38,229 nt of DNA, taken from contig DATLZI010000127.1 in the NCBI GenBank assembly GCA_035574075.1, positions 1 through 38,229 on the forward strand. Direction: 5' to 3'. This DNA comes from a bacterium (GTDB taxonomy: Bacteria > Sysuimicrobiota > Sysuimicrobiia > Sysuimicrobiales > Kaftiobacteriaceae). Shown here one piece after another: positions 3,180 through 27,956 of the stretch (position 1 is its first letter; each line of letters opens with the position of its first letter). The notes beneath the pieces are model-generated. The model saw nothing but the letters and a program-made list of their open reading frames with translations. It had not been told where the DNA came from and searched no databases. The translations under genes were made by a program, and so were the position numbers.

Positions 3180-3181
3180 CG

Positions 3182-5058: not shown

Positions 5059-5071
5059 GCTCTATCCCCCC

Positions 5072-5372: not shown

Positions 5373-5378
5373 GTGGCC

Positions 5379-5405
5379 ATTATAGCATACCCGCGGCGCC
5401 GTCAA
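5379..5405 (-). promoter_or_regulatory. sigma-A type promoter with extended -10 for the aroF-tyrA-trp operon
   Basis: Minus strand has TTGACG (5405..5400), a 15 nt spacer, TGC-TATAAT (extended TG 5387..5386, -10 at 5384..5379). The spacer is shorter than optimal, but the extended -10 is perfect. The -35 overlaps the stop of the upstream small ORF. Confidence 0.55.
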
Positions 5406-5635
5406 GCCCCCGGGGCCGCGCCGGCGCCCAGCTCGATGACCAGGCGGCCCGCCGCGGCGTGGCGGCTCTCCGACTGCAGCTCTCGGGTGATGAACCCGAC
5501 GGGGACGATGCCGAACTTCTTCGCCGCGTTCAGCAGGCGGCGCCGCGCCCGCTCCCGCGCCTCGTCGCCCTCGAACGCGGCCTGGTTGAAGCGGGCGAGG
5601 GCGTTGCGCACGTGCGCTGCGTCGTGGATGGGCAA
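5402..5635 (-). CDS. small conserved hypothetical protein (PIHDxxHVRNALARFNQ N-terminal motif)
   Basis: 77-codon ORF. The N-terminal motif resembles a small bacterial family I recall as DUF6582, which I cannot verify here. Its first codon is TTG, so the start is uncertain. Confidence 0.55.
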   Translation of the reverse strand: MPIHDAAHVRNALARFNQAAFEGDEARERARRRLLNAAKKFGIVPVGFITRELQSESRHAAAGRLVIELGAGAAPGA

Positions 5636-5733
5636 CCGCCGCCGGCCGCTCGGCTCGCCGGCGGGCGGAGAGCCTGGACAACCGAACAGCGGGTCAGCGC
5701 GCCCGCGGCCGGGCCGTCAGTCCCCACCCAACC

Positions 5734-7161: not shown

Positions 7162-7166
7162 CGCGC

Positions 7167-8408: not shown

Positions 8409-8422
8409 CGCCTCGGCCTCGA

Positions 8423-10661: not shown

Positions 10662-10668
10662 GACGCGG

Positions 10669-11040
10669 CTAGGAGCGCCGGGCCTGCAGGTCGGGCCGCA
10701 GCGTGGCGGCGCCGTGGAGGTAGATGTGCACGACCTGCTCCTGCGAGCGGGAGGTGTTCCAGAGCATCAGGACGCGGATGCAGCGCGCCACGGCGCGCGG
10801 CACGGCCATCTCCGTCGCGGACATCAAAGGCACCAGGGTCCAGTTCAGCCGGCGCGCCGCCTCGGCCGGAAACGCCGCGGTCAGGTCGGGCGTGGCGGTG
10901 AAGAGGATCGCCGCGATCTCGTCGGACTCTACGCCGTTCGCCTGCGCCATCTGCTGCAGCAGCTCGACGGTGGCGGAGAGGATGGCCTCCTCCGTGTTGG
11001 CCTCGCAGGTCGTGGCCCCGCGGATGCCCCGGACGTGCAT
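10669..11040 (-). CDS. aroH: chorismate mutase, AroH class
   Basis: MHVRGIRGATT...TEEAIL...ILFTATPDL...FPA...CIRVLM...HIYL..A..LRPDL is collinear with Bacillus subtilis AroH as I recall it. Confidence 0.9.
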   Translation of the reverse strand: MHVRGIRGATTCEANTEEAILSATVELLQQMAQANGVESDEIAAILFTATPDLTAAFPAEAARRLNWTLVPLMSATEMAVPRAVARCIRVLMLWNTSRSQEQVVHIYLHGAATLRPDLQARRS

Positions 11041-11089
11041 CCGCTACCGCGTCCCGACCATGTCGCGGCCGATCGACGCCGGCCCCCGC

Positions 11090-12709
11090 TCAGCGCGCCG
11101 AGGAAGGCCGGGAATGCCGACGAGGTGTTCCTGCTCCACCGATCACCTCCCGCAGCAAGGCCTCCGGGACTTCCTGTTCGCGCCGCACTGACCCGATGCC
11201 TACCAGCACCGGCCAGCGGAGGACGCCGTCCCTCGATTTCTTGTCCAGGGCCAGCGCCCGCCACACCGCGGTCCGACTCACCGGCCCCAATTTGATGGGG
11301 AGCCCGATGCGGGCGAGCAGGGCGTTCTGCCGTTCGACCGCGGCCGCGCTCGCCAACCCCAGGCGCTGGGCCAGACGCGCCTCCAGCGCCATGCCGATGG
11401 CCACGGCCTCGCCGTGCGTCAGCCCGCGGAATCCCGCCGCTGCCTCGACGGCGTGCCCCAGGGTGTGACCGTAGTTCAGGATCTGGCGCTCGGCGCGCTC
11501 CGCTTCATCCGCCTCCACCACGCGGGCCTTGAAGGCGGCGCAGCGCGCGATGACCTCGATCAGCGCCTCCGGCTCCCGGCGGAGCACCGCAGGCAGGTTC
11601 TCCTCCAGGAACTCAAACAGCTCAACGTCGCCGATGACGGCGGTCTTCACCACCTCCGCCAGCCCGCTGCGCAGCTCGCGCTCGGGAAGCGTCCGCAGCG
11701 CGCGGACATCGGCGACGACCGCCGAGGGCTGGTGAAAGGCGCCGATGAGGTTCTTCACCCCGGCATGATTGACCCCGGTCTTCCCGCCGATGCTGCTGTC
11801 GACCATGGCCAGCAGGGTCGTGGGAACATGCACCAGCCGGATCCCCCGCATGTAGATCGCGGCCACGAACCCGCCCAGATCGCCGATCACCCCGCCGCCG
11901 ACCGTGAGCAGCGTGCTGTGGCGGTCCAGCCGCGCCCGAGCCAGACGCGCGCAGAGCGCGCCGACGGTAGCCAGGCTCTTCGAGCTCTCGCCGACCGGCA
12001 CGTCGAGCACCGAGACGTCGAACCCCTGGCTCCTGAGCACCGGCAGGAGGGCGCCCACCGCGGACCGCATCACGCCGCGGTGACTGATGATCGCCAGCCG
12101 CCGGCCCGCGCCCAGCGCGACAAGATCGCCGGGCAGCAGCGCCAAGATCCCCTCGCCGATGTAGATGGGATAGTCGCGGCCGACCAGACGCACCGGCACC
12201 GTGCGGCGATCACGGCGGGCCAGGAAGGCGAGGATCGTCTCAGCCACGCGCTCGGGCGTGGCCACCGCCACGTCGATCAAGAGATCGGCATCGCGGTACA
12301 GCGGCCGACGCTGATCGAGCAGACGGACCACCTCGCCGCGCGCATCGCCGCGCAGCGGCCGTCGCTCGTCGTGGCCCAGCCGTGCGAGCAGGACGTCCAC
12401 GGGCGCCGTGAGCGAGACGATCCAGCCGTGCAGGCGGAGGCGCCGCATGTTCTCGGGACGGAGCACCGCTCCGGCGCCGGTGGCGATCACGAGGTCGCGG
12501 CGCCCGGCGAGCTCGGCGATGATCTGCGCCTCCACGTCCTGCAGGTACCGCTCCCCGCGGCGGGCCACGATCTGCGGAATCGTCGCCCGTTCCCGCGCCG
12601 CCACTCGCCGCTCGGTGTCCACGAAGGTCCACCCGAGGCGGCGGGCCAGGATCTGCCCCACCGCGCTCTTGCCCGTGCCCATGAAGCCGATCAGCACGAC
12701 GTTACGCAT
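11090..12709 (-). CDS. aroKB: bifunctional shikimate kinase-like / 3-dehydroquinate synthase fusion (copy 1)
   Basis: N-terminal domain has LIGFMGTGKSAVG (P-loop). C-terminal domain has canonical DHQS motifs GGGVIGDLGGF, SSIGGKTGVNH, LNYGHTLGHAVE, HGEAVAIGM. 539 aa. Confidence 0.9.
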   Translation of the reverse strand: MRNVVLIGFMGTGKSAVGQILARRLGWTFVDTERRVAARERATIPQIVARRGERYLQDVEAQIIAELAGRRDLVIATGAGAVLRPENMRRLRLHGWIVSLTAPVDVLLARLGHDERRPLRGDARGEVVRLLDQRRPLYRDADLLIDVAVATPERVAETILAFLARRDRRTVPVRLVGRDYPIYIGEGILALLPGDLVALGAGRRLAIISHRGVMRSAVGALLPVLRSQGFDVSVLDVPVGESSKSLATVGALCARLARARLDRHSTLLTVGGGVIGDLGGFVAAIYMRGIRLVHVPTTLLAMVDSSIGGKTGVNHAGVKNLIGAFHQPSAVVADVRALRTLPERELRSGLAEVVKTAVIGDVELFEFLEENLPAVLRREPEALIEVIARCAAFKARVVEADEAERAERQILNYGHTLGHAVEAAAGFRGLTHGEAVAIGMALEARLAQRLGLASAAAVERQNALLARIGLPIKLGPVSRTAVWRALALDKKSRDGVLRWPVLVGIGSVRREQEVPEALLREVIGGAGTPRRHSRPSSAR

Positions 12710-14807: not shown

Positions 14808-16433
14808 TCAGGACTGCGGCAGGCTATCCCCAGCGGTTTGCCCCGCCGCCGCTCCGTGGTCGCTGACCACACGGGCCACCAGGTCGAGCGGCACGTCGCT
14901 GTGCACCTCGCCACTGCCGAGGGCTGTGGGCAGCACGAACCGCAACCGGGCGCCCTGCTTCTTCTTGTCGCGCCACAAGGCCTCCACGAGGTGCGCCGCC
15001 GCCACCCCCGAGAAATCGCACGGCAGACCCAGCCGCCGCAAGAGGGCCGTCTGCCGATCCGCCAGCGTTCCAGCGGTGATCCCCATCGCCGAGCCCACCC
15101 GGGCGGCCAGGGTCATCCCGATGGCCACCGCCTCGCCGTGCGTGTAGCGACGGAAGCCCGTCGAAACCTCGATGGCATGCGCAAAGGTATGGCCGTAGTT
15201 GAGCAGCAGGCGGCGTCCCGTACCTTCCTCGTCTTCATCGACGATGGCGGCCTTGATCCGCAGGCACCACGCCACCAGGTCGGCAAGGCCCTCGCCGCGG
15301 AGCAGATCGCCCGCCCGTTCTTCCAGGAAGCGGAACAGCCCGGCGTCGGCGATCACCCCGTACTTCACGGCCTCGGCCAGTCCAGCGCGCAGCGCTCGAA
15401 GGCCGCCGGCCTGCGCCAGCTGGACGTCGGCGACAGCCAACCGCGGATGGTGGAGGAGGCCGATGAGATTCTTGGCGCGGGGATGGTTGAGCGAGACCTT
15501 TCCGCCGATGCAGCTGTCGAGCTGGGCGACCAGCGTCGTGGGCAGGTAGACTACCGGGACACCGCGCATATACGTCGCGGCGAGAAACCCGCCGATGTCC
15601 AGCGTCTCTTCTCCTCCCATGGCCACCAGACAGCCGGTCCGGTCGAGCTGCTCCTGGACCAGTCGGTCACAGAGCCAGCCGACGGACTCCCACGTCTTCG
15701 CGCTCTCCCCGGCCGGAATCTCGATCAGCACCGGGGAGAAGCCCGCGCCCTGCAGCGCGTCGCGGAGCTGGATGCCGTACGACCTGGCGGCGGCGGGAGA
15801 CGCCAGCACGGCGGCCCGCCCCTGGAGCCCGGCTTCCCGCGCGTAGTACCCCACCAGCCCCCGCACCCCATCGCCCACGATCGCCTGATAGGCCGGGGCA
15901 TGGCGGGGATGGACGGAGACGACCGCCGTGGGCTCTCGCTCGGCAAGGAAACGGACGATCCTCCGCACCACCGCGTCGACGTCCTCCTCCGCGACATCCA
16001 CCACGAGGTCGGCGGCGCGATATCCCGCCTCGCGCCGCTTCCACAGGCGCTCCAGGTTCTGAACGGCCCCGCCCTTGAGGAGCGGCCACTGGTCGGCCTG
16101 CCCGACCCGACGGGCCAGCACCTCGGGGGGCGCCACCAGGGCGATGACCCACCCCCAGGCCCGGAGGGTGGCCATGTTCTCGGGCCGCTCCACCACGCCG
16201 CCGCCGGTAGCGACAACGCCTCTCTGGCCGGTCACTTCGCTGATCGCCGCCTGCTCGAGGGCGCGGAAGTACGCCTCCCCGCGGGTCTCAAAGATCTCCG
16301 CGATGGACGCATCCTCGCGGCTCTCGATCATCTCGTCGGTATCGAAGAAGGGGAGGCCCAACGTGAACGCCAGGCGACGTCCCACAGCGCTCTTGCCCGT
16401 CGCGGGCATGCCGATCAGCGCGATGTTCCTCAT
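14808..16433 (-). CDS. aroKB: bifunctional shikimate kinase / divergent 3-dehydroquinate synthase-like fusion (copy 2)
   Basis: N-terminal domain has LIGMPATGKSAVG, FFDTDEMIE, YFRALE, ATGGGVV. C-terminal DHQS-like domain has GGEETLDIGGF, SCIGGKVSLNH, LNYGHTFAHAIE, HGEAVAIGM. ATG 16433 gives MRNIALIG...; the alternative is TTG 16469. Confidence 0.88.
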   Translation of the reverse strand: MRNIALIGMPATGKSAVGRRLAFTLGLPFFDTDEMIESREDASIAEIFETRGEAYFRALEQAAISEVTGQRGVVATGGGVVERPENMATLRAWGWVIALVAPPEVLARRVGQADQWPLLKGGAVQNLERLWKRREAGYRAADLVVDVAEEDVDAVVRRIVRFLAEREPTAVVSVHPRHAPAYQAIVGDGVRGLVGYYAREAGLQGRAAVLASPAAARSYGIQLRDALQGAGFSPVLIEIPAGESAKTWESVGWLCDRLVQEQLDRTGCLVAMGGEETLDIGGFLAATYMRGVPVVYLPTTLVAQLDSCIGGKVSLNHPRAKNLIGLLHHPRLAVADVQLAQAGGLRALRAGLAEAVKYGVIADAGLFRFLEERAGDLLRGEGLADLVAWCLRIKAAIVDEDEEGTGRRLLLNYGHTFAHAIEVSTGFRRYTHGEAVAIGMTLAARVGSAMGITAGTLADRQTALLRRLGLPCDFSGVAAAHLVEALWRDKKKQGARLRFVLPTALGSGEVHSDVPLDLVARVVSDHGAAAGQTAGDSLPQS

Positions 16434-16488
16434 GGAGGTTAGCCTAGGCCCTCCGCGGTAGCGGCGCAAGCATCACGGCCGGAGGGAG

Positions 16489-17310
16489 CTACGGCCGGGG
16501 GAGGAAGGGCCGAGGCGGAACCCCTGCGTAGGTGTAGCCGCAGCGCGGTGGCGTGGGCCCCTTGATGCGCTCCCCCTGCTGCATCTGCTCCCAGGCGTGC
16601 GCCAGGATCCCCACGGAGCGCGACAGGATGAACAGCCCCCGCCCCAGGGCCGGGGGGAAGTCGAGTTCGCAGAACACCACAGCGGTGGCCCCATCGATGT
16701 TCATGGGGATCCTCCGTCCGGCCCGCCGCTCCAGCGTAGCTTCCACGGCGCGCGCGATGCGCGCGAAGCGGCCGGAGACCGCCCCGGCGCCGACCGCCCG
16801 CTCGACCAGGTGGAGGAGCCGCACGGCCCGGGGATCGACGGGATGGAAGCGGTGGCCGAACCCGGGCACGTAGGCTCCAGGGCCAAGCCCGCTGAGGGCC
16901 GCCTCCACGGCCTCCTCCAGGGACATCCCCTGATCCCACCCCGCGGCCACGGCGTGCAAGACTTCCATGCACTGCTGGCCGGCGCCGCCGTGCACGTCCC
17001 CCAGCGCGTTCACCCCTGCGGCCACGGCGCCATTCAACGCCACCCCGCAGGTCGCCGTCATGCGCGCGATCGCGATGGACGGCGCCTGGGGCCCGTGATC
17101 CACGGCCGCGACCAGCGCGGCCTCGAGGAGCTGCGCCTGGGTCGTCGTGGGCAACTCTCCCCGCAGCATCAGCCAGACCATCGAGGGGAAGTTCAGGTTG
17201 CCGATGAGCTCTTCGATCGCGTAGCCCCGGATCCGGATGCTTCCCGGGGCGATATCGATGATGGCCGTCTGCCACCAATCCCGCACAGGGTCAGCCATCG
17301 GGTCGCTCAT
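16489..17310 (-). CDS. truncated citrate synthase family protein (citryl-CoA lyase-like)
   Basis: About 273 aa, from MSDPMADPVRDWW.... Citrate synthase family motifs are retained: GDVHGGAGQQ, VPGFGHRFHPVDPRA, PMNIDGATAV. ATGA overlap with the CoA-transferase stop. The upstream 96 codons of the tracked ORF are Arg-rich overlap. Confidence 0.85.
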   Translation of the reverse strand: MSDPMADPVRDWWQTAIIDIAPGSIRIRGYAIEELIGNLNFPSMVWLMLRGELPTTTQAQLLEAALVAAVDHGPQAPSIAIARMTATCGVALNGAVAAGVNALGDVHGGAGQQCMEVLHAVAAGWDQGMSLEEAVEAALSGLGPGAYVPGFGHRFHPVDPRAVRLLHLVERAVGAGAVSGRFARIARAVEATLERRAGRRIPMNIDGATAVVFCELDFPPALGRGLFILSRSVGILAHAWEQMQQGERIKGPTPPRCGYTYAGVPPRPFLPRP

Positions 17311-18509
17311 ATCGCCCCCCTGCGCCGGAGCGCCGCGATCTCTTCCGCCGTGAATCCCAGGCTCCGCAGCACATCGTCCGTGTGCTCCCCCAGGCGCGGC
17401 GGCGGCGCGGCGGCGGTCGGCCGGTGACCGGAGATCAAGACGCCGGTCGTGGTCACGTCGACATCGCGACCGATGCCCGCCACATCGCCAAAGTGCTGAA
17501 CCAGGCGGCGCGCGCTGACCTGCGGATGGGCGAGCACCTCGGGGACGGAAAGCACGCGGCCGGAGGGCACCCCGACTCTGTTCAGTCGCTCCTCCCATTC
17601 CGCCGCCGACCGCTGGGCCAGGCGGGCTTCGATCTCCGCCGTCAGGGCCTTCCGATGGCGCAGGCGGGCGTCCCGGTCAGCGAACCGCGGATCGGTGATG
17701 AGGTCCGGCCGCCCGATCTCACGACACAGCGCCTCGAACTGCTCCTGCTTGTTGGCGGCGATGTTCAGCACTCCGTCGCCGGTTCGAAACGTCCCCGAGG
17801 GACTGGCCGTGAAGTTCTCGTTGCCCGACCGGCGGGGGACTTCGCCGGCGATCAGGTAATTGGACACCACCCACCCCATGCTGACCAGCGTGGCCTCGAG
17901 CATCGACACGTCCAGCAGGCACCCCCGGCCCTCTTGCTGGCGCAGACGCAGCGCGCTGGCGATGGCGAAGGCCGCGGCCAGCCCGCCGATGGTATCGCAG
18001 ACCGGAAAGCCCACGCGCAGCGGCCCGCTCCGCTCGTCGCCGGTGACGTCCATCACCCCGGCCAGCCCCTGGATGATCTGATCGTAGGCCGGGTTGGGGC
18101 TGAGGGGGCCGTCCTGGCCGAACCCGGAGATCGCGCAGTAGATCAGACCGGGGTTGAGCGTGGAGAGGCGGTCGTATCCCAGGCCGAGCCTGGCCATGAC
18201 GCCGGGCCGGAAGTTCTCCACCAGCACGTCGGCGGTGACCACCAGCCGTTCGAACACCCTCTGTCCTTCCGGATCCTTGAGGTTGATGGTCACCGAGCGT
18301 TTCCCCGCGTTCTGCGCCAGGAACGAGGCCCCCATCAGGGCGCGGTTGAGGGCTGGGTCGGCGCCGAGTTGCCGGGCGAGATCCCCGCTGCCCGGGACTT
18401 CGACCTTGATGACATCGGCACCGAGCAGGGCCAGCTGAAAGGTGCAGAACGGCCCCGCCAGCACATTGGTGAGGTCAAGGACGCGGACGCCTTCAAGCGG
18501 TGCGGCCAC
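17307..18509 (-). CDS. family III CoA-transferase (CaiB/BaiF type)
   Basis: PLEGVRVLDLTNVLAGPF..., ADVLVENFRPGVMARLGLGY, LIYCAISGFGQDGP, AYDQIIQGLAGVM. GTG 18509 is preceded by AAGGA 9 nt upstream. The N-terminal 200 codons of ORF 17307..19154 overlap iclR in another frame and are rejected. Confidence 0.88.
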   Translation of the reverse strand: MAAPLEGVRVLDLTNVLAGPFCTFQLALLGADVIKVEVPGSGDLARQLGADPALNRALMGASFLAQNAGKRSVTINLKDPEGQRVFERLVVTADVLVENFRPGVMARLGLGYDRLSTLNPGLIYCAISGFGQDGPLSPNPAYDQIIQGLAGVMDVTGDERSGPLRVGFPVCDTIGGLAAAFAIASALRLRQQEGRGCLLDVSMLEATLVSMGWVVSNYLIAGEVPRRSGNENFTASPSGTFRTGDGVLNIAANKQEQFEALCREIGRPDLITDPRFADRDARLRHRKALTAEIEARLAQRSAAEWEERLNRVGVPSGRVLSVPEVLAHPQVSARRLVQHFGDVAGIGRDVDVTTTGVLISGHRPTAAAPPPRLGEHTDDVLRSLGFTAEEIAALRRRGAI

Positions 18510-19251
18510 GACGCTCGATCCTTTCGTCGAATGGCCGCCGGTCGCCGCCGAGATCGGCCGTGAGCTCCGCCGAGGCGACCAGGACCAGGGCCCTGATCCG
18601 CTCCGCGGTCCGGCTCCGGAACCGGTAGATCGGGCCGGAGACGGACAGCGCCCCGACCAGCTCCTGGCCGATCCGGAAGACCGGCGCCGCGACCGCGGCG
18701 GTTTCGCGGTCCCGCTCACCGAAGGTTGCCGCGACATACTGGCGGCGGATCCGCGCGTACACCTCCCCGGGCTCGCCGCTGAAGGCGAGCAACACCCGTC
18801 CGACGGCGCCCCGGTCCAGCGGCAGGTGGTCGCCCTCCCGCACGTGGTCGCGGATGGCTCGGGGGGAGTCCACGCGATGCAGGCAGACGCGCACGGTCCC
18901 CTCGCGCACGTAGAAGGACGCGCTCTCGCCGGTCTGCCGGACCAGTTTCCGCAACATCGGCACCACGAGGTCGCCCACCCGGAACGACCGCTGATACAGG
19001 CTGGCCAGACGCATCGGGGTCGGCCCCAGCCGGTACCCCGCGCCGTCGACGCGGTGCAGGTAGCCGTGGCGGGCCAGCGATTCGCACAGCCGCAGGATGG
19101 TGCTCTTGTACATGCCGGTGCGCTCGGCCATGTCGGCGAGGGTGAGCGTGGCATCCCCCTCGCGGAAGACCGTCAGCACCGTCAGCGCCCGGTCCACCGC
19201 CGCGACGCCCGCCTTTCGCCCTGTTCCGACCCAGCTTCTGCCCGCTACCAT
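18493..19251 (-). CDS. IclR-family transcriptional regulator
   Basis: VDRALTVLTVF...LTLADMAERTGMYKSTILRLCESLARHGYL (wHTH), then an IclR effector domain (LPLDRGAVGRVLLAF, VGALSVSGP). ATG 19251 overlaps the ThDP-enzyme stop. Confidence 0.9.
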   Translation of the reverse strand: MVAGRSWVGTGRKAGVAAVDRALTVLTVFREGDATLTLADMAERTGMYKSTILRLCESLARHGYLHRVDGAGYRLGPTPMRLASLYQRSFRVGDLVVPMLRKLVRQTGESASFYVREGTVRVCLHRVDSPRAIRDHVREGDHLPLDRGAVGRVLLAFSGEPGEVYARIRRQYVAATFGERDRETAAVAAPVFRIGQELVGALSVSGPIYRFRSRTAERIRALVLVASAELTADLGGDRRPFDERIERRGRTA

Positions 19252-20972
19252 TGGTAGATGTCGTTGATGTCCCAGTGCCCTCCCGTCGGTACGGGATCGT
19301 TGGTCATCGGCACATCCAGGACCGTCGGCCGCCGGCCCTGCAGCGCCCGCTCCAGCGCGGGGCCCAGATCCTCGGCGCGCTCGATGCGCACACCCTCCGC
19401 GCCGTAGGCTCGCGCCAGGGCGGCGAAATCGGGCGAGTACGGCCTGCCCTCGTGGCGGAACTCGCAGCCCAGGGTGTGGCCGAAGTGCTGGTTCATGAGG
19501 CCGGCGATCGTCCCGTGGGCGAAGTTGTTCATGACCACCCACGTGACGTTGATGCCCTGCTCCACCGCCGTGGCCAGCACGGAGGGGTTGGCGCTGAACG
19601 CCCCATCCCCGACCATCGCCACACAGGCGCGCTCGGGCTTCGCCAGCTTGGCGCCTAGCACGGCGGCCGGCCCGAACCCCATCGTAGCCAGCCCGCCCGG
19701 GGTCAGGTGCGTGCGTGGGAAGTAGATGGGAAACTGCTGCCCCACGCCGTTCTTGTTCCAACCGACGTCCGTCACCAGGATGCCGTCCCGGGGCAGGGCG
19801 GCGCGCACCTCGGCCAGGATGCGTTGGGGGGCGAGGGGGTACTTCTCCGACCGCATCGGGCCGGCAAGGCTCTCGCGCCACTTCGCCCGCTCGGCCTGGA
19901 TCTCCGCTAGATCGACATGCCCGCGGCCGCCGCGGGGCGCCAGCTCCATCATCGCCTCCAGGATCGCGCGCAGCGCCGCCCGGGCATCGGCGACGGCCCC
20001 GATCGCCACCGGGAAGGATCGGCCGAGCTCGGCCGGATCGACATCGATGTGGATCAGCTCGGTGGGCGGGATGGCGAAGGTGAATCTCGCGTCCCACGAA
20101 CTGGCATCGGCCTCGGCGAACCGCGTGCCCACGGCCAGGAGCACGTCGGCCTCCCGGGTCACGCGATTCGTCAGGTCCGTCCCCCAGAAGCCGGTCATCC
20201 CCAGGACCAGCGGGTGGTCGTCCGGGATCGCTCCCTTCCCCATCAGGGAGTAGGCGACGGGAGCGTTGAGGTGCTCGGCGAGCCGGGCCAGCTCTTCCGC
20301 GCCACCCGAACTGATGACGCCGCCGCCCACATAGAGCACGGGCCGTCGGGCCGCCAGCAGGCGTTCGGCGATGCGGTGTGCCGTTCCCGGTTCCAGTCCG
20401 GGCCGCGCCGCAGGGCGCGGAGCGGGGGGATCAGGATCCTCCGCCGGCCGGGACAGCACGTCCATGGCCACGTCCACGAGCACCGGCCCGGGACGGCCGC
20501 TCATGGCGAGCAGGTAGGCGCGTTCCAGGATCCGGGCCAGACCCCTGGGCTGCGTCACGCGCCAGACGCGCTTCACGAAGGGCCGGTAGATGGCGGACTG
20601 ATCGCCATCGTTGTGCACCTGAACCTCCTGGTGGGGGTGGCGGCCGAAGAAGTACGACGGAACATCGCCGGCGATGACGAGCAGCGGGACGGAATCCAGC
20701 GCCGCGTTGGCCACCCCCGTGACGGCATTGGTCAGCCCCGGCCCGACGTGGGTCAGCAGCACCCCGCACTCCCCGGAGGCGCGGGCGTACCCGTCGGCCA
20801 TGTGCGCGGCGATCTGCTCATGCCGGTTCATCACGAACTGGATCCGGCTGTCCCGGAAGGCGTCCAGCAGCGCGATCACGGTGTGCCCGCACAGGCCGAA
20901 GACGTACCGTGTCCCGATCGCCTCCAGGAACCGCGTGATCTGATGCGCAACGTTGTAGGGCTTGGCTCCCAT
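19245..20972 (-). CDS. thiamine diphosphate-dependent enzyme, acetolactate synthase-like (specific reaction unknown)
   Basis: Three-domain ThDP fold: N-terminal Pyr domain (HEQIAAHMADGYARASG, GPGLTN), middle domain, and a C-terminal PP domain with GDGAF...N (VGDGAFSANPSVLATAVEQGINVTWVVMNN). Confidence 0.88.
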   Translation of the reverse strand: MGAKPYNVAHQITRFLEAIGTRYVFGLCGHTVIALLDAFRDSRIQFVMNRHEQIAAHMADGYARASGECGVLLTHVGPGLTNAVTGVANAALDSVPLLVIAGDVPSYFFGRHPHQEVQVHNDGDQSAIYRPFVKRVWRVTQPRGLARILERAYLLAMSGRPGPVLVDVAMDVLSRPAEDPDPPAPRPAARPGLEPGTAHRIAERLLAARRPVLYVGGGVISSGGAEELARLAEHLNAPVAYSLMGKGAIPDDHPLVLGMTGFWGTDLTNRVTREADVLLAVGTRFAEADASSWDARFTFAIPPTELIHIDVDPAELGRSFPVAIGAVADARAALRAILEAMMELAPRGGRGHVDLAEIQAERAKWRESLAGPMRSEKYPLAPQRILAEVRAALPRDGILVTDVGWNKNGVGQQFPIYFPRTHLTPGGLATMGFGPAAVLGAKLAKPERACVAMVGDGAFSANPSVLATAVEQGINVTWVVMNNFAHGTIAGLMNQHFGHTLGCEFRHEGRPYSPDFAALARAYGAEGVRIERAEDLGPALERALQGRRPTVLDVPMTNDPVPTGGHWDINDIYQW

Positions 20973-20983
20973 CTCCCACCACC

Positions 20984-22012
20984 TTACTCCGCGATGCGCA
21001 CCACGGCTTTCCCCGCCAGCCGCCCCCCCGCGGCGTGCAGGGCGTCCTCCACGGCGGCGAGGGGGAATTCGGACTCCACCAGGTCGCCGATCCGCAGGAT
21101 CCCGCGACCGGTCACCAGACCGATGGCCCTGCGGAAGTCATCGGGGTGGTCGTAGATGATCGAGCTGGTGATGGTGATCCCTTCGCGCACGATGCGCAAC
21201 GGTTGCAGGGACACGGGATCGGTGGCCAGTCCCAGCAGGACCACGGTGCCTCCACGCGGCACCGCCTCCAGACACCAGCCCGCCCCGGAGGCTGTGCCGG
21301 AGGACTCGAAGATCACCGGCCAGGCAGCCCCGGTCTGGACGCGGCGCGCGAGCCCTGTCGCATCTTCGCGGGACATCACCACCGTCTCGGCGGCTCCGGC
21401 GCGTCGCGCGGCCTCGACCCGCCGCTCATCCAGATCGATGGCGCAGATGCGGACGCCCATGCCGGCCAGCAGGCGCGTCAGGACCAGGCCGATGGTGCCG
21501 CACCCCAGAACCAGGGCGGCATCCCCCGGCACCAGCTTGGAGACGGCGACGGCGTGGATGGCCACGGCCAGGGGCTCGATGAGCACTGCGTCCTGCCAGG
21601 ACAGAGCCGGCGGGATGGCCCAGGCGTGGGTGGCGGGAAGGGTCGCGTAGTCGGCCAGCACGCCGGGCACGTTCACGCCCAGGGAGCGCTTGTCGGGGCA
21701 GATCGCGCCGCGGCCGCGCCGGCACCAGAGGCATCGTCCGCAGGGCACGTTGGGCTCGAGGACGACGCGCTCGCCGACGCGCTCCGCGCCCACGCCAGGG
21801 CCCACCGCAGCGATCCGTCCCACCCCCTCGTGTCCCATGATGAGGGGATAGGGCGCCGTACGGTGCCCCTGGAAGAGGTGCACATCGCTGCCGCACACCC
21901 CCACGCGCTCGATGGCCACCAGCACCTCGCCGGCCTGGGGCACCGGTGGGGGAAGGCGGTCCACCCGCACCGTGCGCGGGGCATGGAGGCGCGCCGCCCG
22001 CATCAACATCAC
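20984..22012 (-). CDS. zinc-dependent medium-chain alcohol/polyol dehydrogenase
   Basis: GVCGSDVH, GHEGVG, structural zinc CGRCLWCRRGRGAIC, Rossmann motif VLGCGTIGL. ATGA overlap with the aroD stop. Confidence 0.9.
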   Translation of the reverse strand: MMLMRAARLHAPRTVRVDRLPPPVPQAGEVLVAIERVGVCGSDVHLFQGHRTAPYPLIMGHEGVGRIAAVGPGVGAERVGERVVLEPNVPCGRCLWCRRGRGAICPDKRSLGVNVPGVLADYATLPATHAWAIPPALSWQDAVLIEPLAVAIHAVAVSKLVPGDAALVLGCGTIGLVLTRLLAGMGVRICAIDLDERRVEAARRAGAAETVVMSREDATGLARRVQTGAAWPVIFESSGTASGAGWCLEAVPRGGTVVLLGLATDPVSLQPLRIVREGITITSSIIYDHPDDFRRAIGLVTGRGILRIGDLVESEFPLAAVEDALHAAGGRLAGKAVVRIAE

Positions 22013-22839
22013 GGCCCCTCCTCGCCGGGACCGCCGGCCAGACCCAGCGCCCGCAACCCCCGGCGCATCAGCTCCAGGTCCATCTGACCGGGGGCCGAGG
22101 CTTCCAGGCCCACCGCGAACGTCAGGTCGGATCCGAAGTGCCCCGCGAAGCGGCTCACCCCGCCCAGCGCTCCCATGGACATCAGGATGCAGGGGATCTC
22201 CAGGAACGTGCGGCGCGCCTCCAGGCCGGCGGTGAGCAGGGCAAGCACGTCCTCCGGCATCCGCGGCGTGACCGCGACCTTCGCCACGGCCGCACCGGCG
22301 CTCTGCATCGTCCGGAGCGTCCCCAGCAGCGTCTGCACGGCGGGGGTCGCGGTGAAGTCATGCCACGACCGAATCACCGCCACGCCCGCTCGCCCCGCCG
22401 CTTCGGTCACGCGCGCGGCCAGGGGTGGGGGGGTGGCCAGTTCCACATCGACCAGCGCCGGGGTACCGGTCGCTGCCGCCGCGGTGAGGATGGCCACCCG
22501 GCGATCCTCCTCCTGGATCCTGTGCCCGCCCTCGCCGGCCAGGCGGTTCGTGAAGATCAGCGGGATCGGCGCGGCGGCGGCCACGTCCTGGAGCAGCGCC
22601 GGGACGTCAGCGGGGGTCAGGTCGGCGACGAAGTCGGCACGCCACTCGATGCAGTCAGGCCGGAGCGCGGCCAGCGCGCGGGCCTGGTCGACCAGCGCGC
22701 CGCGATCGCGCGCCGTCAGGGGCACGCAGGTGAGCACCGTCGGCCCGCCCAGCAGGTGTCGGCCGACCTTGACCGGTCGTCTGGCAGAGAGACGGGACGG
22801 CGTGATGCTCCTACCTCCATCACCGGGTCGGGTTCTCAC
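22009..22839 (-). CDS. aroD: 3-dehydroquinate dehydratase, type I
   Basis: IEWRADF, SWHDF..TP, AKVAV (Schiff-base Lys region), MSMGALGGVSR. The only upstream start codon in frame is GTG 22839, which overlaps the cupin 3' end by 20 nt, so the start is uncertain. Confidence 0.88.
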   Translation of the reverse strand: MRTRPGDGGRSITPSRLSARRPVKVGRHLLGGPTVLTCVPLTARDRGALVDQARALAALRPDCIEWRADFVADLTPADVPALLQDVAAAAPIPLIFTNRLAGEGGHRIQEEDRRVAILTAAAATGTPALVDVELATPPPLAARVTEAAGRAGVAVIRSWHDFTATPAVQTLLGTLRTMQSAGAAVAKVAVTPRMPEDVLALLTAGLEARRTFLEIPCILMSMGALGGVSRFAGHFGSDLTFAVGLEASAPGQMDLELMRRGLRALGLAGGPGEEGP

Positions 22840-23215
22840 CCGGCGGCGTGTAGCACCACAGCAGCACGAGCGGCTCGGAGCCGGTATTGACGTGCTGGTG
22901 CGGCAGTCCCTTGGGCACGAACATCATGTCGTGGGGGCCGAAGGGCTGCCGCGAGCCATCGGCGCCGACCACTTCCCCGTGGCCGGCCAGGACCACATTG
23001 ATCTCTTCCGACTCGGGATGGCTGTGCAGCGAGCTCGCCTCTCCCTGGGGGAAGACGGTGATCCCCGCCACCAGGTGCTCCGAGCCGCACAGCTCTCTGT
23101 CCACCGTGCGGAACACCTTGCGGCGGAATCCCGGATTGTCCAGTCCGATCCAGTAGGCCTTCCCCTCCGTGTACGTCCGGACCACTCGGATCCCGGGCTG
23201 CGCCCTGACGCCCAC
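22820..23215 (-). CDS. monocupin metalloprotein
   Basis: Both cupin motifs are present: GEASSLHSHPESEEINVVLAG and GPHDMMFVPKGLPHQHVN (His/His/Glu/His ligands). 131 aa with a GTG start. Confidence 0.85.
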   Translation of the reverse strand: MGVRAQPGIRVVRTYTEGKAYWIGLDNPGFRRKVFRTVDRELCGSEHLVAGITVFPQGEASSLHSHPESEEINVVLAGHGEVVGADGSRQPFGPHDMMFVPKGLPHQHVNTGSEPLVLLWCYTPPGENPTR

Positions 23216-23218: not shown

Positions 23219-24715
23219 TCACCCCTCCTCGGACAGTCCCACGAAGACGCTCTTCACTTCGCTGTACTCGAGCAGTCCCTCCAGGCCCAGTTCCCGACCC
23301 AGGCCGCTTTGCTTGAAGCCGCCGAAGGGCGCCTCGATGTAGGTCACGGGCACGCTGTTCACGCTGACCACCCCGGCACGCAGGGCGCGCGCCAGACGGT
23401 GCGCCCGCCCCACGTCGCGGGTCCACACGGTCGCCGCCAGGCCGTAGCGCGTCTCGTTCGCGATCCTGACCGCTTCCGCTTCTTCCGCAAACCGCATGAT
23501 GCACACCACCGGCCCGAAGATCTCCTCGCGGGCGATGGTCATCTCGTTGCGCACTTCGCCGAACGCCGTGGGGAGCAGGTAGTATCCCTCCGCCAGCGCG
23601 GGGTCGTCCGGCACCCGGCCGCCGCAGAGCAGCGCGGCGCCTTCCTCCAGGCCCTTCCGCACGTACCCCAGGATGGACGCGCGCTGCGCCTGTGAGATCA
23701 CCGGGCCCATCTCCGTCGCCGGATCCAGCGGATCTCCGAGCTTGATCGCCCGGGCGGCGGCGACGAATCGCTCGACGAACTCCTCATAGATCGCGTCGTG
23801 CACCAGCAGTCGGGAACGGGCTGTGCACCGCTGGCCGGCGTGGGAGTACACGGCGGTGATCGACCCGGGAACCGCCCGCTTAAGATCGGCATCGGGGAAG
23901 ATCACGTTGGGCGACTTGCCGCCGAGTTCCAGCGTCAGGCGCTTGACCGTGGCCGCGGCGGCGGCCATCACAGCGGTGCCGGTCTCGGTGTCGCCGGTGA
24001 GAGCGATCTTGTCCACCCCGGGGTGCCTGACCAGCGCCATCCCGAGCGTTCCCCCGGGCCCCGTGACAACGTTGACCACCCCCGGCGGTAGACCGGCTTC
24101 CAGGCAGATCTCACCCAGCAGGAGAGCGGTCACCGGCGTGGCGCTGGCCGGCTTGAGGATCACCGTGTTCCCGACAGCCAGGGCTGGGGCCGTCTTGTAG
24201 GCGGCCATGATGAAGGGACTGTTCCAGGGCGTGATCCCCAGGCACACCCCGATCGGCTCGCGCACTGTGTAGGCGAAGAGGCCCTCATCCACGGGCAGGG
24301 TTCGCCCCCAGAGCTTCTCGGCCAGTCCCGCGTAGTAGTGGAAGCACGCCGCGGCTTTAAGGATCTGGGCCCGGGCGTCGCGGATCGGCTTGCCCGAGTT
24401 CATGGTCTCCAGGCGCGCCAGTTCGTCCGCCCGCGCTTCGATCCGATCGGCCACGGCGCGAAGCAGCCGCGCCCGGGCGGCCCCGCTCATCCTCGGCCAG
24501 GGACCGGTCTCCAGGGCCTGCCGGGCCGCCGCCACCACGCGCTCCGCGTCGGCCGGACCGGCGCTGGCCACGCGGGCGACCACCCGGCCCGTAGCCGGGT
24601 TGTAGGTGTCCATCGTGGCTCCGGACTCAGCCGGAGTCCACCGGCCGCCCACCAGCAGGGCATACGTCGGCACGTCCTTCATCGCTGCGGATGTGGCACG
24701 CGGCACCGTTGCCAT
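23219..24715 (-). CDS. NAD(P)-dependent aldehyde dehydrogenase
   Basis: From MATVPRATSAAMKDVP...: ITPWNSPF, KPA, LELGGKSP, catalytic GQRCTA, EEIFGPV. ATG 24715 shares one nt with the tctA stop. The N-terminal 200 codons of the tracked ORF overlap tctA and are rejected. Confidence 0.92.
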   Translation of the reverse strand: MATVPRATSAAMKDVPTYALLVGGRWTPAESGATMDTYNPATGRVVARVASAGPADAERVVAAARQALETGPWPRMSGAARARLLRAVADRIEARADELARLETMNSGKPIRDARAQILKAAACFHYYAGLAEKLWGRTLPVDEGLFAYTVREPIGVCLGITPWNSPFIMAAYKTAPALAVGNTVILKPASATPVTALLLGEICLEAGLPPGVVNVVTGPGGTLGMALVRHPGVDKIALTGDTETGTAVMAAAAATVKRLTLELGGKSPNVIFPDADLKRAVPGSITAVYSHAGQRCTARSRLLVHDAIYEEFVERFVAAARAIKLGDPLDPATEMGPVISQAQRASILGYVRKGLEEGAALLCGGRVPDDPALAEGYYLLPTAFGEVRNEMTIAREEIFGPVVCIMRFAEEAEAVRIANETRYGLAATVWTRDVGRAHRLARALRAGVVSVNSVPVTYIEAPFGGFKQSGLGRELGLEGLLEYSEVKSVFVGLSEEG

Positions 24716-26295
24716 CACGCCACCTCCCTTCTGATCCGTCGGCGGCGCACCAGGTTCACGATCCCGCCGATGGAGAGACTCGGCGCGAAGGCCGAGAGCA
24801 AGATGACGGTCAGCACCAGGCTGATGGGATGACTGACCAGCTCCCAGAAGAACAGCGGCACGTTGCCCTGGACGGCGAGCATGGCCCGGCGGAAGTTGAT
24901 GTCGGCCAGCGGTCCGAGGATCACCCCCAGCACCATCGGCCCCACCGGATAGCCGCCCAGCTTCATGAAGTACCCCAGCACGCCGAACCCGATCATCCAG
25001 AAGACGTCGTAGATGTTGTTCTGGATGGCGTAGGTCCCGACGACCGAGATGAGCACGATGAGCGGCATCAGGATCTTCTTGTTGATGTTCACGACCTTGA
25101 CGAACGGGCGCACCGCCATCAGCCCGAAGAAGAAGAGGAAGATGTTCGCCAGGCCGTAGGAGCCGGCGATGAACCAGAACAGATCTCGCTGCTCCACCAT
25201 GAGCAACGGCCCGGGCCGCAGCCCGTGGATGAACAGCACGCTGATCAGCACCGCGGTCACGGCGTCGCCCGGAATGCCCAAGGTGAGCATGGGGATCATG
25301 TCCCCGCCGATGCACGCGTTGTTGGCCGTCTCCGGGGCGACCACCCCTTCCACCGCGCCCTGGCCGAAGGGACGCGATGGTTTCTTCACCGTCCGCTTGG
25401 CGTCCGCGTAGGCGAGCAGCGCGGCGATGTCGCCTCCCGCCCCGGGCAGCGCTCCCACGATGACCCCGATCACCGAGGCGCGGATGGTCACGGGCAGGTA
25501 CTTGAAGAAGTATCGGAACCCCGGGAGAACGCCGCCCACCTCGGCGATCCGGGCCTGCGGAACCCCACTCCGCACGATCCTCCCGATCTGATAGATCACC
25601 TCGGAAGCCCCGAAGAGCCCGATCACGGCGGCGATGAAGTGCACGCCGTTGATCAACACCGGCTGGCCGAAGGTGAACCTCCCCTCGCCGGTGATCGGGT
25701 CCATGCCGATCAACCCGACCAGGACGCCCACCGCCGCGCCGACCATCGACTTCGCCATCGATCCCCCCGCGAGGCGGCCGGTCAGCGAGAGGCCCATCGC
25801 CGCCAGCAGGAAGTAGTCTCTGGGCGCGAACTTCAGGGCGAGCTCGGAGATCGGCGGCGCGGCGAGGATCAGCGCCAGAAGGCCGATGAACCCACCCACC
25901 ACGGATTGGACGGTGGCCACCCCGATCGCCAGGCCGGCTTCCCCCCGCATCGCCATAGGGTGGCCGTCGAACGTCGTCGCCAGCGCGGAAGGGGTGCCTG
26001 GGATGTTGATGAGGATCGACGATCGCGACCCTCCGTACACCCCGCCGGCGTACACGCCGAGCATCAACGCCAGCGCCGTCTTCGTGTCCCAGGAATAGGT
26101 CATCGAGGCCAGCAGGGCCACAGCCATCGTCACGCTGAGGCCCGGAGTGGCGCCCACCAGGATGCCCGCGGCCACGCCGAGCGCGGACAGCGCAACGTTG
26201 AGCGGGGAGAGGAATTCGCCGAGCACGCGCAGGGCCAGGTCGATGGTCGGCCTCCTAGGGCAGGATGACGACGAACAGGTACCGGAACACGGCAA
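24715..26295 (-). CDS. tctA: tripartite tricarboxylate transporter, large permease
   Basis: TctA-type polytopic protein (GATPGLSVTMAVALL, INIPGTPSA, GALPGAGGDIAA). The start is uncertain: TTG 26295 lies inside tctB, while AGGAGG lies 6 nt before an in-frame ATC at 26244. Confidence 0.88.
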   Translation of the reverse strand: MPCSGTCSSSSCPRRPTIDLALRVLGEFLSPLNVALSALGVAAGILVGATPGLSVTMAVALLASMTYSWDTKTALALMLGVYAGGVYGGSRSSILINIPGTPSALATTFDGHPMAMRGEAGLAIGVATVQSVVGGFIGLLALILAAPPISELALKFAPRDYFLLAAMGLSLTGRLAGGSMAKSMVGAAVGVLVGLIGMDPITGEGRFTFGQPVLINGVHFIAAVIGLFGASEVIYQIGRIVRSGVPQARIAEVGGVLPGFRYFFKYLPVTIRASVIGVIVGALPGAGGDIAALLAYADAKRTVKKPSRPFGQGAVEGVVAPETANNACIGGDMIPMLTLGIPGDAVTAVLISVLFIHGLRPGPLLMVEQRDLFWFIAGSYGLANIFLFFFGLMAVRPFVKVVNINKKILMPLIVLISVVGTYAIQNNIYDVFWMIGFGVLGYFMKLGGYPVGPMVLGVILGPLADINFRRAMLAVQGNVPLFFWELVSHPISLVLTVILLSAFAPSLSIGGIVNLVRRRRIRREVA

Positions 26296-26704
26296 ATGTC
26301 ACCCCGGTCGCCACGGCCGCCACCAGCAGGGACTTCCACCAGGGCATCGCCCGCAGCCACAGGAACGACACCAGCAGGAAGACCAGGGAGGACCGGACGA
26401 ACCCCAACGGCCTGAGCAGGGCTCCGTAGCCGATGATCAGGGCGGCGTACAGCAGCGCCCACCCCGTCACCGGCTCAGCCGGTTCATCCGCAGATCGCTC
26501 CTGTCGCCAGATGGATACAGCGCAGGCCAGAAGGACGGCGGCGACCAGCGCCGGGAAAACGCCGGGCGAGCCGGGATCAGACCAGAAATCCGTGAACCGG
26601 CTCGCCCGCACGAACACAAACACACCCAGGGCCGCGATCCCCGCCGCCTGTGCGCGGGCCGACCACTTCGCCCGCGGCGCCGCCGGGGAGGGGTCCGCCG
26701 CCAT
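26255..26704 (-). CDS. tctB: tripartite tricarboxylate transporter, small permease
   Basis: 149 aa, four predicted TM helices, positioned between tctC and tctA. The ATG is 1 nt after the tctC stop. Confidence 0.8.
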   Translation of the reverse strand: MAADPSPAAPRAKWSARAQAAGIAALGVFVFVRASRFTDFWSDPGSPGVFPALVAAVLLACAVSIWRQERSADEPAEPVTGWALLYAALIIGYGALLRPLGFVRSSLVFLLVSFLWLRAMPWWKSLLVAAVATGVTFAVFRYLFVVILP

Positions 26705-26705
26705 C

Positions 26706-27742
26706 CTACTTCCCGGGCCGCGGAATCCCGAACGCCTGGGGCGACTTCTTCGCCGCGCCGGCGTCGTAGAGCAGCCAGGCGGTCACGGACTGCCACTGCT
26801 TCACGAACCGCACGGCCTCGTCCCCGGAGAGGTTCAAGGGAACCGCGCCCAACAGCTCGGCGAATTCCTTGAACTCCTCGCTGCCGACCGCCGCTTTGAA
26901 GGCCTCGGTGAGCTTGGCCACGGCCGGAGCGGGGGTGCCCTTCTTGACCCAGACCCCGAAGAACGGTCCCCAGGGGAGGTAGGGGCGTAGCGGGGGATCA
27001 TCTGCCCCAGGGCCGGCACGCCGGGCGCGCCGGCGTTCGGCACGTTGTCTACGACCGCGATCGCCCGCATGCGGCCAGCCCGCATATGCTCCGCCGCTGC
27101 CGAGAGGACCGAGACATGGAAGTCGATATGCCCCCCCAGCAAGGCGGCCAGAGCCGGCCCATCGCCGTCGAAGGGAATCGTGTTGAACTTCACGCCGCTT
27201 ACCGCGGTCATCATGGCGCCGACGACAAAGGGCACGCCCCCGATGCCCGTGCCGCCGGCCTTGATCTGGCCGGGGCGCTGCCGGGCGTCACGGATCAGGT
27301 CGTCGAGGTACCGATACTTCGAGTCGCTGCGCACGACGATTACCGGGATGCTGCGAGCGAACAGGTTGATCGGGATGAACTCGTCGAAGGTGCGCGGCGA
27401 GATGTCCAGGATGCCGTACAGCGTCGGGTTCTCGGCGGCGAACAGCAGGGTGTAGCCGTCCGCCGGCTGGTCGTAGACGTACTGCATGGCCGTGGCCCCG
27501 CTGGCCCCCGTCATGTTGTTCAAAACGATCCGCTGCCCCAACAGGCGATCCGCCAGCGGAGCCACCTTCCGCGACACGCGATCCGTGGTGCCGCCGGCGC
27601 CCCACTGGATGATGCCGATGATGTTGCGCTCGGGATACCCCTGCGCCGTCGACGGGGCGGCGGCGACCCCCAGCGCCAACATCACCCCCAGCAGGGCCAT
27701 CACGGACAGTCGCCGCGCACCGGACATCCTGGATCTACCCAT
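26706..27742 (-). pseudogene. tctC: TctC/Bug-family periplasmic substrate-binding protein, reading frame broken by a 1-nt frameshift
   Basis: The 5' part (frame of ORF 26834..27778) gives a signal peptide plus the Bug fold up to ...GVPALGQMIPRYAP. The conserved C-terminus YLPWGPFFGVWVKKGTPAPAVAKLTEAFKAAVGSEEF... continues in the frame of ORF 26706..26921. The switch is at the GGGG run 26982..26985, and the out-of-frame tail is Pro/Ser/Arg-rich. Confidence 0.7.
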
Positions 27743-27956
27743 GCCCTCTCCCCCCTCACGGTGATGCGCAGCCCCCACCCTCCACCCCCGATCGGGAGCC
27801 GCTACTGCGTACTGCCTGGTAGAACTTCGTTCTGAAATTACGCTCCTCCTCTCGCCCGGCAGGGGGAACGGTCCGCCCCGGCCGGCAGAGGAGGTCCCCC
27901 GCGCATCCTCTAATGGTGGCAGCGTCCACCCCGGGCCAGGGGGTGGAGGACCGCGC

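Follow-up and report, generated by a model that had tools for sequence, protein, structure and literature searches.

A CoA-transferase gene coupled to a short citrate-synthase-fold lyase gene: a candidate ATP-independent activation and cleavage module within a conserved gene array of Sysuimicrobiota

Citrate is cleaved in three textbook ways, by ATP-citrate lyase, by citryl-CoA synthetase together with citryl-CoA lyase (CCS/CCL) and by the carrier-protein enzyme CitDEF. Modules that combine a family III CoA-transferase with a lyase of the CitE/HpcH type are also established, among them the succinyl-CoA:malate/citramalate transferases with malyl-/citramalyl-CoA lyases and the module of itaconate degradation. 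Here we describe a gene pair in which a family III CoA-transferase is coupled to a lyase of the citrate synthase fold. It lies in a window of 38,229 nucleotides (the whole stretch analysed; contig DATLZI010000127.1, here C127) from a 2.5 Mb, 72% GC, 86%-complete metagenome-assembled genome (G000) of the phylum Ca. Sysuimicrobiota, whose closest named relative is Candidatus Fervidifonticultor. No functional study of this transferase/lyase pair was found in the literature searched, which included quinate with thiamine diphosphate (ThDP) enzymes or CoA-transferases and homocitrate catabolism. The closest published mention is in a genome paper of 2012 on the phn island of Delftia, which lists an adjacent "formyl-CoA transferase" and "citryl-CoA lyase" and speculates, by annotation alone, that both modulate acetyl-CoA and oxaloacetate (PMC3318190). 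The elements of the pair are as follows.

17307..18509, minus strand: family III (CaiB/BaiF, SUGCT-like) CoA-transferase, 400 aa, GTG start, Pfam CoA_transf_3
16489..17310, minus strand: short citrate-synthase-fold lyase of the citryl-CoA-lyase family, 273 aa, NCBIfam NF004864 and PDB 6hxp
17307..17310, minus strand: ATGA stop/start overlap of transferase and lyase, read from the sequence, with a GGGGGG Shine-Dalgarno sequence just upstream

The transferase gene begins with a GTG (18509-18507) preceded by an AAAGGA Shine-Dalgarno sequence and ends with a TGA (17309-17307), and the lyase gene, behind its GGGGGG, runs from an ATG (17310-17308) to a TAG (16491-16489). A plot of GC content at third codon positions supported both frames on the minus strand, within an unbroken run of minus-strand genes across this region. 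The first-pass annotation had described a CoA_transf_3 protein coupled through ATGA to a 273-aa mini citrate synthase, and direct reading of the sequence bore this out. We take the two proteins to form a translationally coupled acyl-activation/cleavage module, a reading to which we give slightly better than an even chance.

The transferase matched Pfam CoA_transf_3 over the entire profile (407 bits, positions 1-366 of 366). Its best PDB match was human succinate-hydroxymethylglutarate CoA-transferase (SUGCT; 9br7, E 1.1e-75) with the Asp nucleophile aligned, and this active-site residue, D172, was invariant in 25 orthologues. Scores on the NCBIfam models were 299 bits for SUGCT function, below the cut-off of 750, and 264 bits for the mesaconate transferase. 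3-Hydroxy-3-methylglutarate is citrate with a methyl group replacing one carboxyl.

The lyase scored 424.4 bits on the NCBIfam model NF004864 'citryl-CoA lyase' (cut-off 261) and 133 bits on Pfam Citrate_synt, where the match spans only positions 166-353 of the 357 in the profile, with a further weak piece at the N-terminus. Its best solved relative was a 268-aa citryl-CoA lyase (PDB 6hxp, E 2.3e-43, a full-length match of lyase residues 13-268 against 6hxp residues 5-251). Judged from its sequence, the lyase is a "mini" citrate synthase; it had been likened to the shortened Hydrogenobacter lyase, in agreement with the partial profile coverage and the closest structure. In a residue census, the window lyase and 80 relatives (81 sequences) were aligned with the two canonical full-length citrate synthases of the same genome. 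H72, H107, H153, R154, R161, D206, F227 and R231 were invariant in 81/81, with H107, H153 and D206 aligning to the His/His/Asp of both citrate synthases; the three motifs predicted to hold the catalytic positions are accordingly in place as VHGGA (H107), GFGHR (H153) and NID (D206). The catalytic and oxaloacetate-binding positions of E. coli GltA are H229, H264, H305, R314, D362, F383 and R387 (PMC13147460), and their equivalents in the lyase were likewise invariant throughout the census. The C-terminal 'RP' Arg of citrate synthases is replaced by an invariant R248-x-K250-G-P in the lyase family, and 6hxp has K-P there. Since the distal-carboxylate binders of oxaloacetate (R161; RxKGP, 248-252) are invariant, malate and citramalate, earlier put forward as possible substrates, are unlikely and were set aside. 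The active site appears built for a keto acid with two carboxylates, which argues for a tricarboxylate substrate.

Absence of a citryl-CoA synthetase, also noted in the first-pass annotation, was confirmed for the window, which holds no Ligase_CoA or ATP-grasp gene; the genome's three Ligase_CoA matches are on contigs C53 and C274. The CitD, CitE and CitF families were not found among the window genes, and one HpcH_HpaI (CitE-like) gene lies on contig C32.

Within the wider family, a search of 1.84 billion representatives gave 191 clusters (50% identity) of the short citrate-synthase superfamily at E below 1e-30. In the 150 top-ranking representatives of 1.84 billion proteins no fusion of CoA_transf_3 to the lyase was found; P0093, the one long form with additional domains that was checked, carries ATP-citrate-lyase-type CoA_binding, Ligase_CoA and Citrate_synt. 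A second, distinct short citrate-synthase-like family was seen in 30 further genomes of the phylum (for example G016:C88:41238-41966 and G046:C194:12043-12768), with 168-195 bits on NF004864, below its cut-off.

Scanning one genome per species revealed at least 541 relatives of the lyase among the 600 stretches listed. Gene neighbourhoods were counted at the 80 closest loci (59-70% identity), mapped by tblastn with annotated reference proteins; these loci come from Pseudomonadota, Gemmatimonadota, Acidobacteriota, Planctomycetota, Actinomycetota, Thermodesulfobacteriota, Binatota and Sysuimicrobiota. An orthologous transferase (58-74% identity) lies directly upstream of the lyase on the same strand, with a median gap of 42 nt, at 58 of the 80 loci, and a different family III transferase lies directly downstream at eight, so that a transferase adjoins the lyase in 66/80. 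A CoA-acylating aldehyde dehydrogenase (ALDH; SauS/EutE-like) is directly upstream at six loci, two loci are truncated upstream, and six have another neighbour, three of these with a transferase elsewhere in the cluster. By these counts the module is no peculiarity of the window. It is better regarded as a widespread, already auto-annotated gene pair, predicted to work as an ATP-independent "activate then cleave" module. An exact-sequence look-up of the lyase of locus L009 returned no record.

Three loci (L066, L075 and L082) have no transferase in the flank retrieved, which leaves the acylating ALDH as the one gene in view that could supply a CoA ester. Its position directly ahead of the lyase at these loci without a transferase indicates that the substrate of the lyase is a CoA thioester, and the acylating-ALDH loci provide the strongest comparative argument both for such a substrate and for activation preceding cleavage. 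Clean replacement of the transferase by an acylating ALDH was considered and rejected, because L006, G027, G009, L054 and L070 keep both.

In most loci the pair has transporter genes (TTT, TRAP, DASS and MFS) and IclR regulators as neighbours. "Minimal" loci with a carboxylate transporter, IclR, transferase and lyase occur in Mesorhizobium, Cupriavidus, Bordetella, Paraburkholderia and Bradyrhizobium, and the transporter of the Paraburkholderia locus resembles aromatic-acid:H+ symporters, not citrate carriers. In Azospirillum and Xanthobacter (L007, L008, L013 and L019, about 6400-11650) the lyase has an ALDH on one side and another family III transferase (33% identity) on the other. Next come a flavoenzyme that reaches 359 of the 369 bits required by the TcuA tricarballylate dehydrogenase model and then a Peripla_BP_6 binding protein, a context that looks tricarboxylate-flavoured.

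In the window, the pair belongs to an array with the order tctC (frameshifted)-tctB-tctA, ALDH, cupin, type I dehydroquinase, Zn-dependent alcohol dehydrogenase (Zn-ADH), ThDP enzyme, IclR, transferase, lyase, AroK-AroB paralogue and biosynthetic aro genes. The genes around the pair are listed below.

18493..19251, minus strand: IclR-family regulator (HTH_IclR and IclR_C), with overlaps of 7 nt (ThDP gene) and 17 nt (transferase gene)
19245..20972, minus strand: ThDP-dependent enzyme of an uncharacterised subfamily of the acetolactate-synthase superfamily, three TPP_enzyme domains
20984..22012, minus strand: Zn-dependent medium-chain alcohol dehydrogenase (ADH_N and ADH_zinc_N)
22009..22839, minus strand: type I 3-dehydroquinate dehydratase (DHquinase_I, 181 bits; TIGR01093 above cut-off)
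22820..23215, minus strand: small monocupin, 131 aa (Pfam Cupin_2)
23219..24715, minus strand: NAD(P)-dependent non-acylating aldehyde dehydrogenase, 498 aa (Pfam Aldedh, 594 bits)
24715..27778, minus strand: tctC-tctB-tctA tripartite tricarboxylate-type transporter (Pfam TctA, TctC and TctB)
14808..16469, minus strand: AroK-AroB fusion paralogue directly downstream of the lyase (SKI and DHQ_synthase), likely ATG near 16433

The transporter genes (TctC 27778-26724, TctB 26704-26255, TctA 26295-24715) had been placed at the head of the operon, and they do head the co-directional array, 6 kb and six genes away from the pair. The ALDH ATG and the tctA stop share one base, and the transferase start lies inside the IclR gene, whose stop is at 18495-18493. 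Promoter- and terminator-like sites inside the array did not exceed shuffle expectation, which favours an operon structure, though its boundaries are putative. The tctC gene is split over two frames with a break near 26987-26996, and its intact counterpart in G048 (about 345 aa) is 98% and 96% identical to the pieces; either the gene has recently become a pseudogene or the assembly has a homopolymer error at this place. No NCBIfam model reached its cut-off for the ThDP enzyme, and no IolD model was among its top matches; its best PDB match was BbmA/ALS, with cyclohexane-1,2-dione hydrolase at E 1e-49 only. The literature retrieved on BbmA/CsmA was unrelated. AP_endonuc_2 is absent from the window genes, and four such genes lie on other contigs.

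Three other genomes of the phylum share the 12-gene order, with 84-97% identity in the 99%-complete G048 of the same genus and 57-83% in G027 and G009, which belong to two other genera. The trait is patchy and is carried by 12 of 94 phylum genomes. The ALDH position holds a non-acylating enzyme in the window and G048; in L006 (614-2026), L098 (G027, 4615-6000) and L100 (G009, 2606-3988) it is exchanged in place for a SauS/EutE-like acylating ALDH, with the CoA-transferase kept. The Zn-ADH retains its position in the phylum's array copies and the monocupin, a candidate isomerase or dioxygenase, is conserved in them; G090 contains both, with the cupin immediately ahead of the lyase. The lyase-adjacent AroK-AroB copy travels with the array in G048, G027 and G009, and in G090 it is on the opposite strand. 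This paralogue may serve an accessory pathway rather than biosynthesis. A second AroK-AroB fusion gene lies 2 kb from it at 11090-12709 (minus strand), and an AroKB-like gene also stands ahead of the Microlunatus cluster (L066).

In a maximum-likelihood tree, the window lyase falls in a clade of 36 (support 100/94). ThDP orthologues, 77-94% identical inside the phylum and 53-59% outside it, adjoin the lyase in 19 of the 80 loci, and the clade holds 19 of 20 ThDP-linked loci. It also includes loci of the Azospirillum type, with an ALDH, a second transferase and the TcuA-like flavoenzyme, and of the Bradyrhizobium type, with a lactonase-like Amidohydro_2 gene; most members that are not ThDP-linked have an ALDH or Amidohydro_2 gene alongside, and the "minimal" loci are mostly outside this clade. 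Beyond the phylum, a four-gene core of ALDH, transferase, lyase and ThDP enzyme with a divergent IclR gene was found in Aromatoleum, Burkholderiales, Steroidobacter and Gemmatimonadota. Among the ThDP-linked loci with enough flank, 11/14 lie beside type I dehydroquinase, shikimate-dehydrogenase-like, AP_endonuc_2 or QuiC-like split genes, and three ThDP-linked loci have no hydroaromatic gene nearby; TRAP transporters, a porin or a carboxylesterase also occur near the core. The Actinomycetota loci L066 and L082 consist of exactly acylating ALDH, lyase, ThDP enzyme, AP_endonuc_2 and AroE-like genes, to which L082 adds an IolG-family GFO_IDH_MocA gene. A dehydrogenase, AP_endonuc_2 and ThDP enzyme are in one cluster in L066, L075 and L082, and the window has the Zn-ADH and ThDP enzyme without AP_endonuc_2. 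The cupin accompanies the window, L006, G027, G009 and G090, and an HPPD-like VOC protein accompanies L009, L014, L020 and L075. In the latter four (L009:4674-6461), a QuiC-type dehydroshikimate dehydratase is present as two genes, HPPD-like VOC and AP_endonuc_2, which match the QuiC model over one half each and only at low scores (127 and 157 bits), and the reaction may differ from protocatechuate formation.

The type I dehydroquinase of the array (22009-22839) is the only dehydroquinase found in G000, as is its counterpart in G048, and no type II enzyme was detected in either genome (86% and 99% complete, respectively). In the taxonomic family, 20 of 22 genomes have the type II enzyme without type I, and only the array carriers G000 and G048 have type I without type II, so it seems that the ancestral aroQ gave way to the acquired cluster, which looks catabolic. 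Being the sole dehydroquinase, the array enzyme must be functional and serve aromatic amino acid synthesis too. Both genomes also contain PcaHG-like intradiol dioxygenase genes and several AP_endonuc_2 genes elsewhere.

We propose the following course of reaction. The SUGCT-like transferase would move CoA from a donor, which we infer to be most likely succinyl-CoA or the product acetyl-CoA, onto the -CH2-COOH arm of a citrate-like 3-hydroxy-3-carboxy acid. The lyase would then reverse the citrate-synthase condensation without hydrolysis, releasing acetyl-CoA and a 2-oxo-dicarboxylate (oxaloacetate from citrate, 2-oxoglutarate from homocitrate), so that no ATP would be spent and the thioester would be recycled. 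Upstream, the ThDP enzyme probably yields an aldehyde, which the ALDH would oxidise to the acid activated by the transferase; in the sister arrays the CoA-acylating ALDH would make the CoA ester directly. The simplest order that would fit all variants has the ThDP enzyme forming the aldehyde, the ALDH with the transferase or the acylating ALDH forming the CoA ester, and the lyase cleaving it. CoA transfer followed by lyase cleavage without ATP is what the first-pass annotation had suggested, and the adjacency of the pair, the intact active site and the acylating-ALDH loci support it. The conserved ThDP and ALDH partners, usually with dehydroquinate/shikimate genes, indicate that the acid is likely made inside the cell, and the module is probably the last step of a larger conserved catabolic array here and not a stand-alone citrate lyase.

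Several points weigh against this proposal. The name "citryl-CoA lyase" is transferred by homology, at about 40% identity, and no assayed member of the lyase's orthologous group was found in the literature searched. Keto-acid specificity could differ, as the 'RP' Arg is swapped for the invariant RxKGP. Organisms with a full tricarboxylic acid (TCA) cycle have no obvious need for such citrate cleavage, and two canonical citrate synthases are encoded in this genome; in principle the reaction could run either way, and its direction is read from context only. In G090, where the array is rearranged (L099, G090:C4, 3120-11543: ThDP enzyme, tctCBA, Zn-ADH, ALDH, cupin, lyase), no CoA-transferase, acylating ALDH, IclR or dehydroquinase gene was found within 20 kb of the lyase.

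Three readings of the substrate survive. Citryl-CoA would fit the intact oxaloacetate site and the minimal loci, and the ThDP enzyme would then decarboxylate a 2-oxo acid such as 4-carboxy-4-hydroxy-2-oxoadipate; homocitryl-CoA would arise via ThDP-dependent opening of a dehydroquinate-derived dione, and the Actinomycetota five-gene set would then be complete; another hydroxy-tricarboxylate would be the third. As to the origin of the acid, it is possible, though we hold this tentatively, that the pair is the terminal step of an undescribed quinate/shikimate breakdown, in which ThDP-aided opening of the carbocycle and an (acylating) ALDH would give a citrate-/homocitrate-like acid or its CoA ester for cleavage to acetyl-CoA and oxaloacetate or 2-oxoglutarate. 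A fully specified, non-aromatic version of such a route is doubtful: dehydroquinate would lose water to give a cyclic 1,2-dione, whose ring the ThDP enzyme would open with the logic of IolE/IolD or cyclohexanedione hydrolase, and the aldehyde end would be oxidised to homocitrate or homocitryl-CoA, from which the lyase would release acetyl-CoA and 2-oxoglutarate. In favour of this version, C1 of quinate is chemically similar to the central carbon of citrate, as it bears OH and COOH, and quinate has seven carbons, as does homocitrate; the hydroaromatic genes at 11/14 ThDP-linked loci, the five-gene set of L066 and L082 with its IolG-family addition in L082, and the functional cluster dehydroquinase point the same way. 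Homocitrate lactonises readily, and the lactonase-like Amidohydro_2 gene that follows the lyase in Bradyrhizobium-type loci would suit it as well. However, we know of no citrate synthase family member that uses 2-oxoglutarate, and the oxaloacetate-type residues of the lyase are intact; the ThDP enzyme is nearer to acetolactate synthase/BbmA than to cyclohexane-1,2-dione hydrolase and has no IolD model among its top matches; the window has no AP_endonuc_2 gene, and three ThDP-linked loci no hydroaromatic gene. The PcaHG-like dioxygenase and AP_endonuc_2 genes elsewhere in G000 and G048 could instead serve the textbook aromatic route.

The products acetyl-CoA and oxaloacetate would be retained if a cupin or VOC protein cleaved a dehydroshikimate- or gallate-type ring oxygenolytically and the ThDP enzyme decarboxylated, for example, 4-carboxy-4-hydroxy-2-oxoadipate to a 'citrate semialdehyde', which an ALDH or acylating ALDH would convert to citrate or citryl-CoA. 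An ALS-like ThDP enzyme suits a decarboxylase, a cupin or HPPD-like VOC gene is present in many clusters, and the two kinds of ALDH are interchangeable; but the steps have no known precedent, the cupin function is putative, L066 and L082 have neither a cupin nor a VOC gene, and nature has a one-step aldolase for 4-carboxy-4-hydroxy-2-oxoadipate, so that such a detour is hard to justify, and we rate this open-chain course as quite improbable. A reading in which TctCBA imports external citrate, the pair alone acts as an ATP-free and carrier-free citrate lyase giving acetyl-CoA or acetate and oxaloacetate, and the other array genes are unrelated draws on the full conservation of the oxaloacetate-binding residues, the many loci with only a transporter, IclR, transferase and lyase, and the TcuA-like tricarballylate-dehydrogenase homologue beside the pair in Azospirillum. 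We consider it unlikely, as the window lyase groups in a clade whose members are ThDP-linked (19 of 36) or mostly have an ALDH or Amidohydro_2 gene, three further phylum genomes keep the 12-gene order, an acylating ALDH can directly precede the lyase, the Paraburkholderia transporter looks like an aromatic-acid:H+ symporter and not like a citrate carrier, and tctC is frameshifted in the window. The first-pass annotation had proposed citrate as a substrate and pointed to the transporter; the transporter genes are indeed in the array, but a plain import reading ignores the conserved ThDP, ALDH and hydroaromatic partners, and the acid is more likely a pathway intermediate. Finally, both reactions are reversible in principle, and the pair could condense acetyl-CoA and oxaloacetate to citryl-CoA and pass the CoA to succinate, or the lyase-like protein could have a role other than C-C cleavage. 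This is highly improbable given the intact catalytic residues, the two full-length citrate synthases already in the genome, and the setting of the pair among transporters, an IclR regulator and an irreversible aldehyde oxidation.

If the proposed module operates, it would add a fourth way of citrate cleavage, pairing a family III CoA-transferase or acylating ALDH with a citrate-synthase-fold lyase and conserving the thioester without ATP or a carrier protein, and it would widen the known chemistry of the citrate synthase family. The pair is found in hundreds of species from at least eight phyla, and the annotation "citryl-CoA lyase" may mislead pathway predictors by creating false markers of the reductive TCA cycle in heterotrophs. 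A substrate derived from quinate or shikimate would let the module close a gap in the bacterial use of abundant plant acids, and that route, if true, would for the first time place the citrate synthase fold in catabolism beyond central carbon metabolism.

Among the described systems, CCS/CCL of Hydrogenobacter thermophilus has a lyase (PDB 6hxp) with the same short citrate-synthase fold (268 aa, against 273 aa here) and the same His/His/Asp, so that the citryl-CoA-type retro-Claisen cleavage of the second step would be shared. Unlike there, the CoA ester would come from a family III CoA-transferase or an acylating ALDH instead of the ATP-dependent, succinyl-CoA-synthetase-like CCS, the setting is heterotrophic and catabolic rather than the reductive TCA cycle, and the substrate may not be citrate. 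CitDEF (EC 4.1.3.6) likewise combines an ATP-independent acyl exchange onto a thiol carrier with a lyase step that yields oxaloacetate, but its components belong to unrelated families (CitF transferase, CitE HpcH-type lyase, CitD acyl carrier with prosthetic group), whereas free CoA esters and no carrier protein would be involved here. Of the solved structures, SUGCT (PDB 9br6/9br7) comes nearest to the transferase (E 1e-75 over residues 3-384, Asp nucleophile conserved) and acts on a 3-hydroxy-3-substituted glutarate, like citrate; it differs in an identity of only about 40% and in not being partnered with a citrate-synthase-fold lyase. Some sister clusters recall IolG/IolE/IolD and cyclohexane-1,2-dione hydrolase in combining a GFO_IDH_MocA or shikimate-dehydrogenase-like enzyme with AP_endonuc_2 and a ThDP enzyme, although the window has no AP_endonuc_2 gene, its ThDP enzyme has more in common with acetolactate synthase than with the enzymes that open rings, and the pathway would end in the CoA module with no kinase or aldolase afterwards. 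The modules with CitE/HpcH-type lyases have the same transferase family and the same logic of turning a dicarboxylate into a CoA ester for retro-aldol/Claisen cleavage, whereas the lyase here is of the citrate synthase family and its conserved distal-carboxylate binders point to a tricarboxylate.

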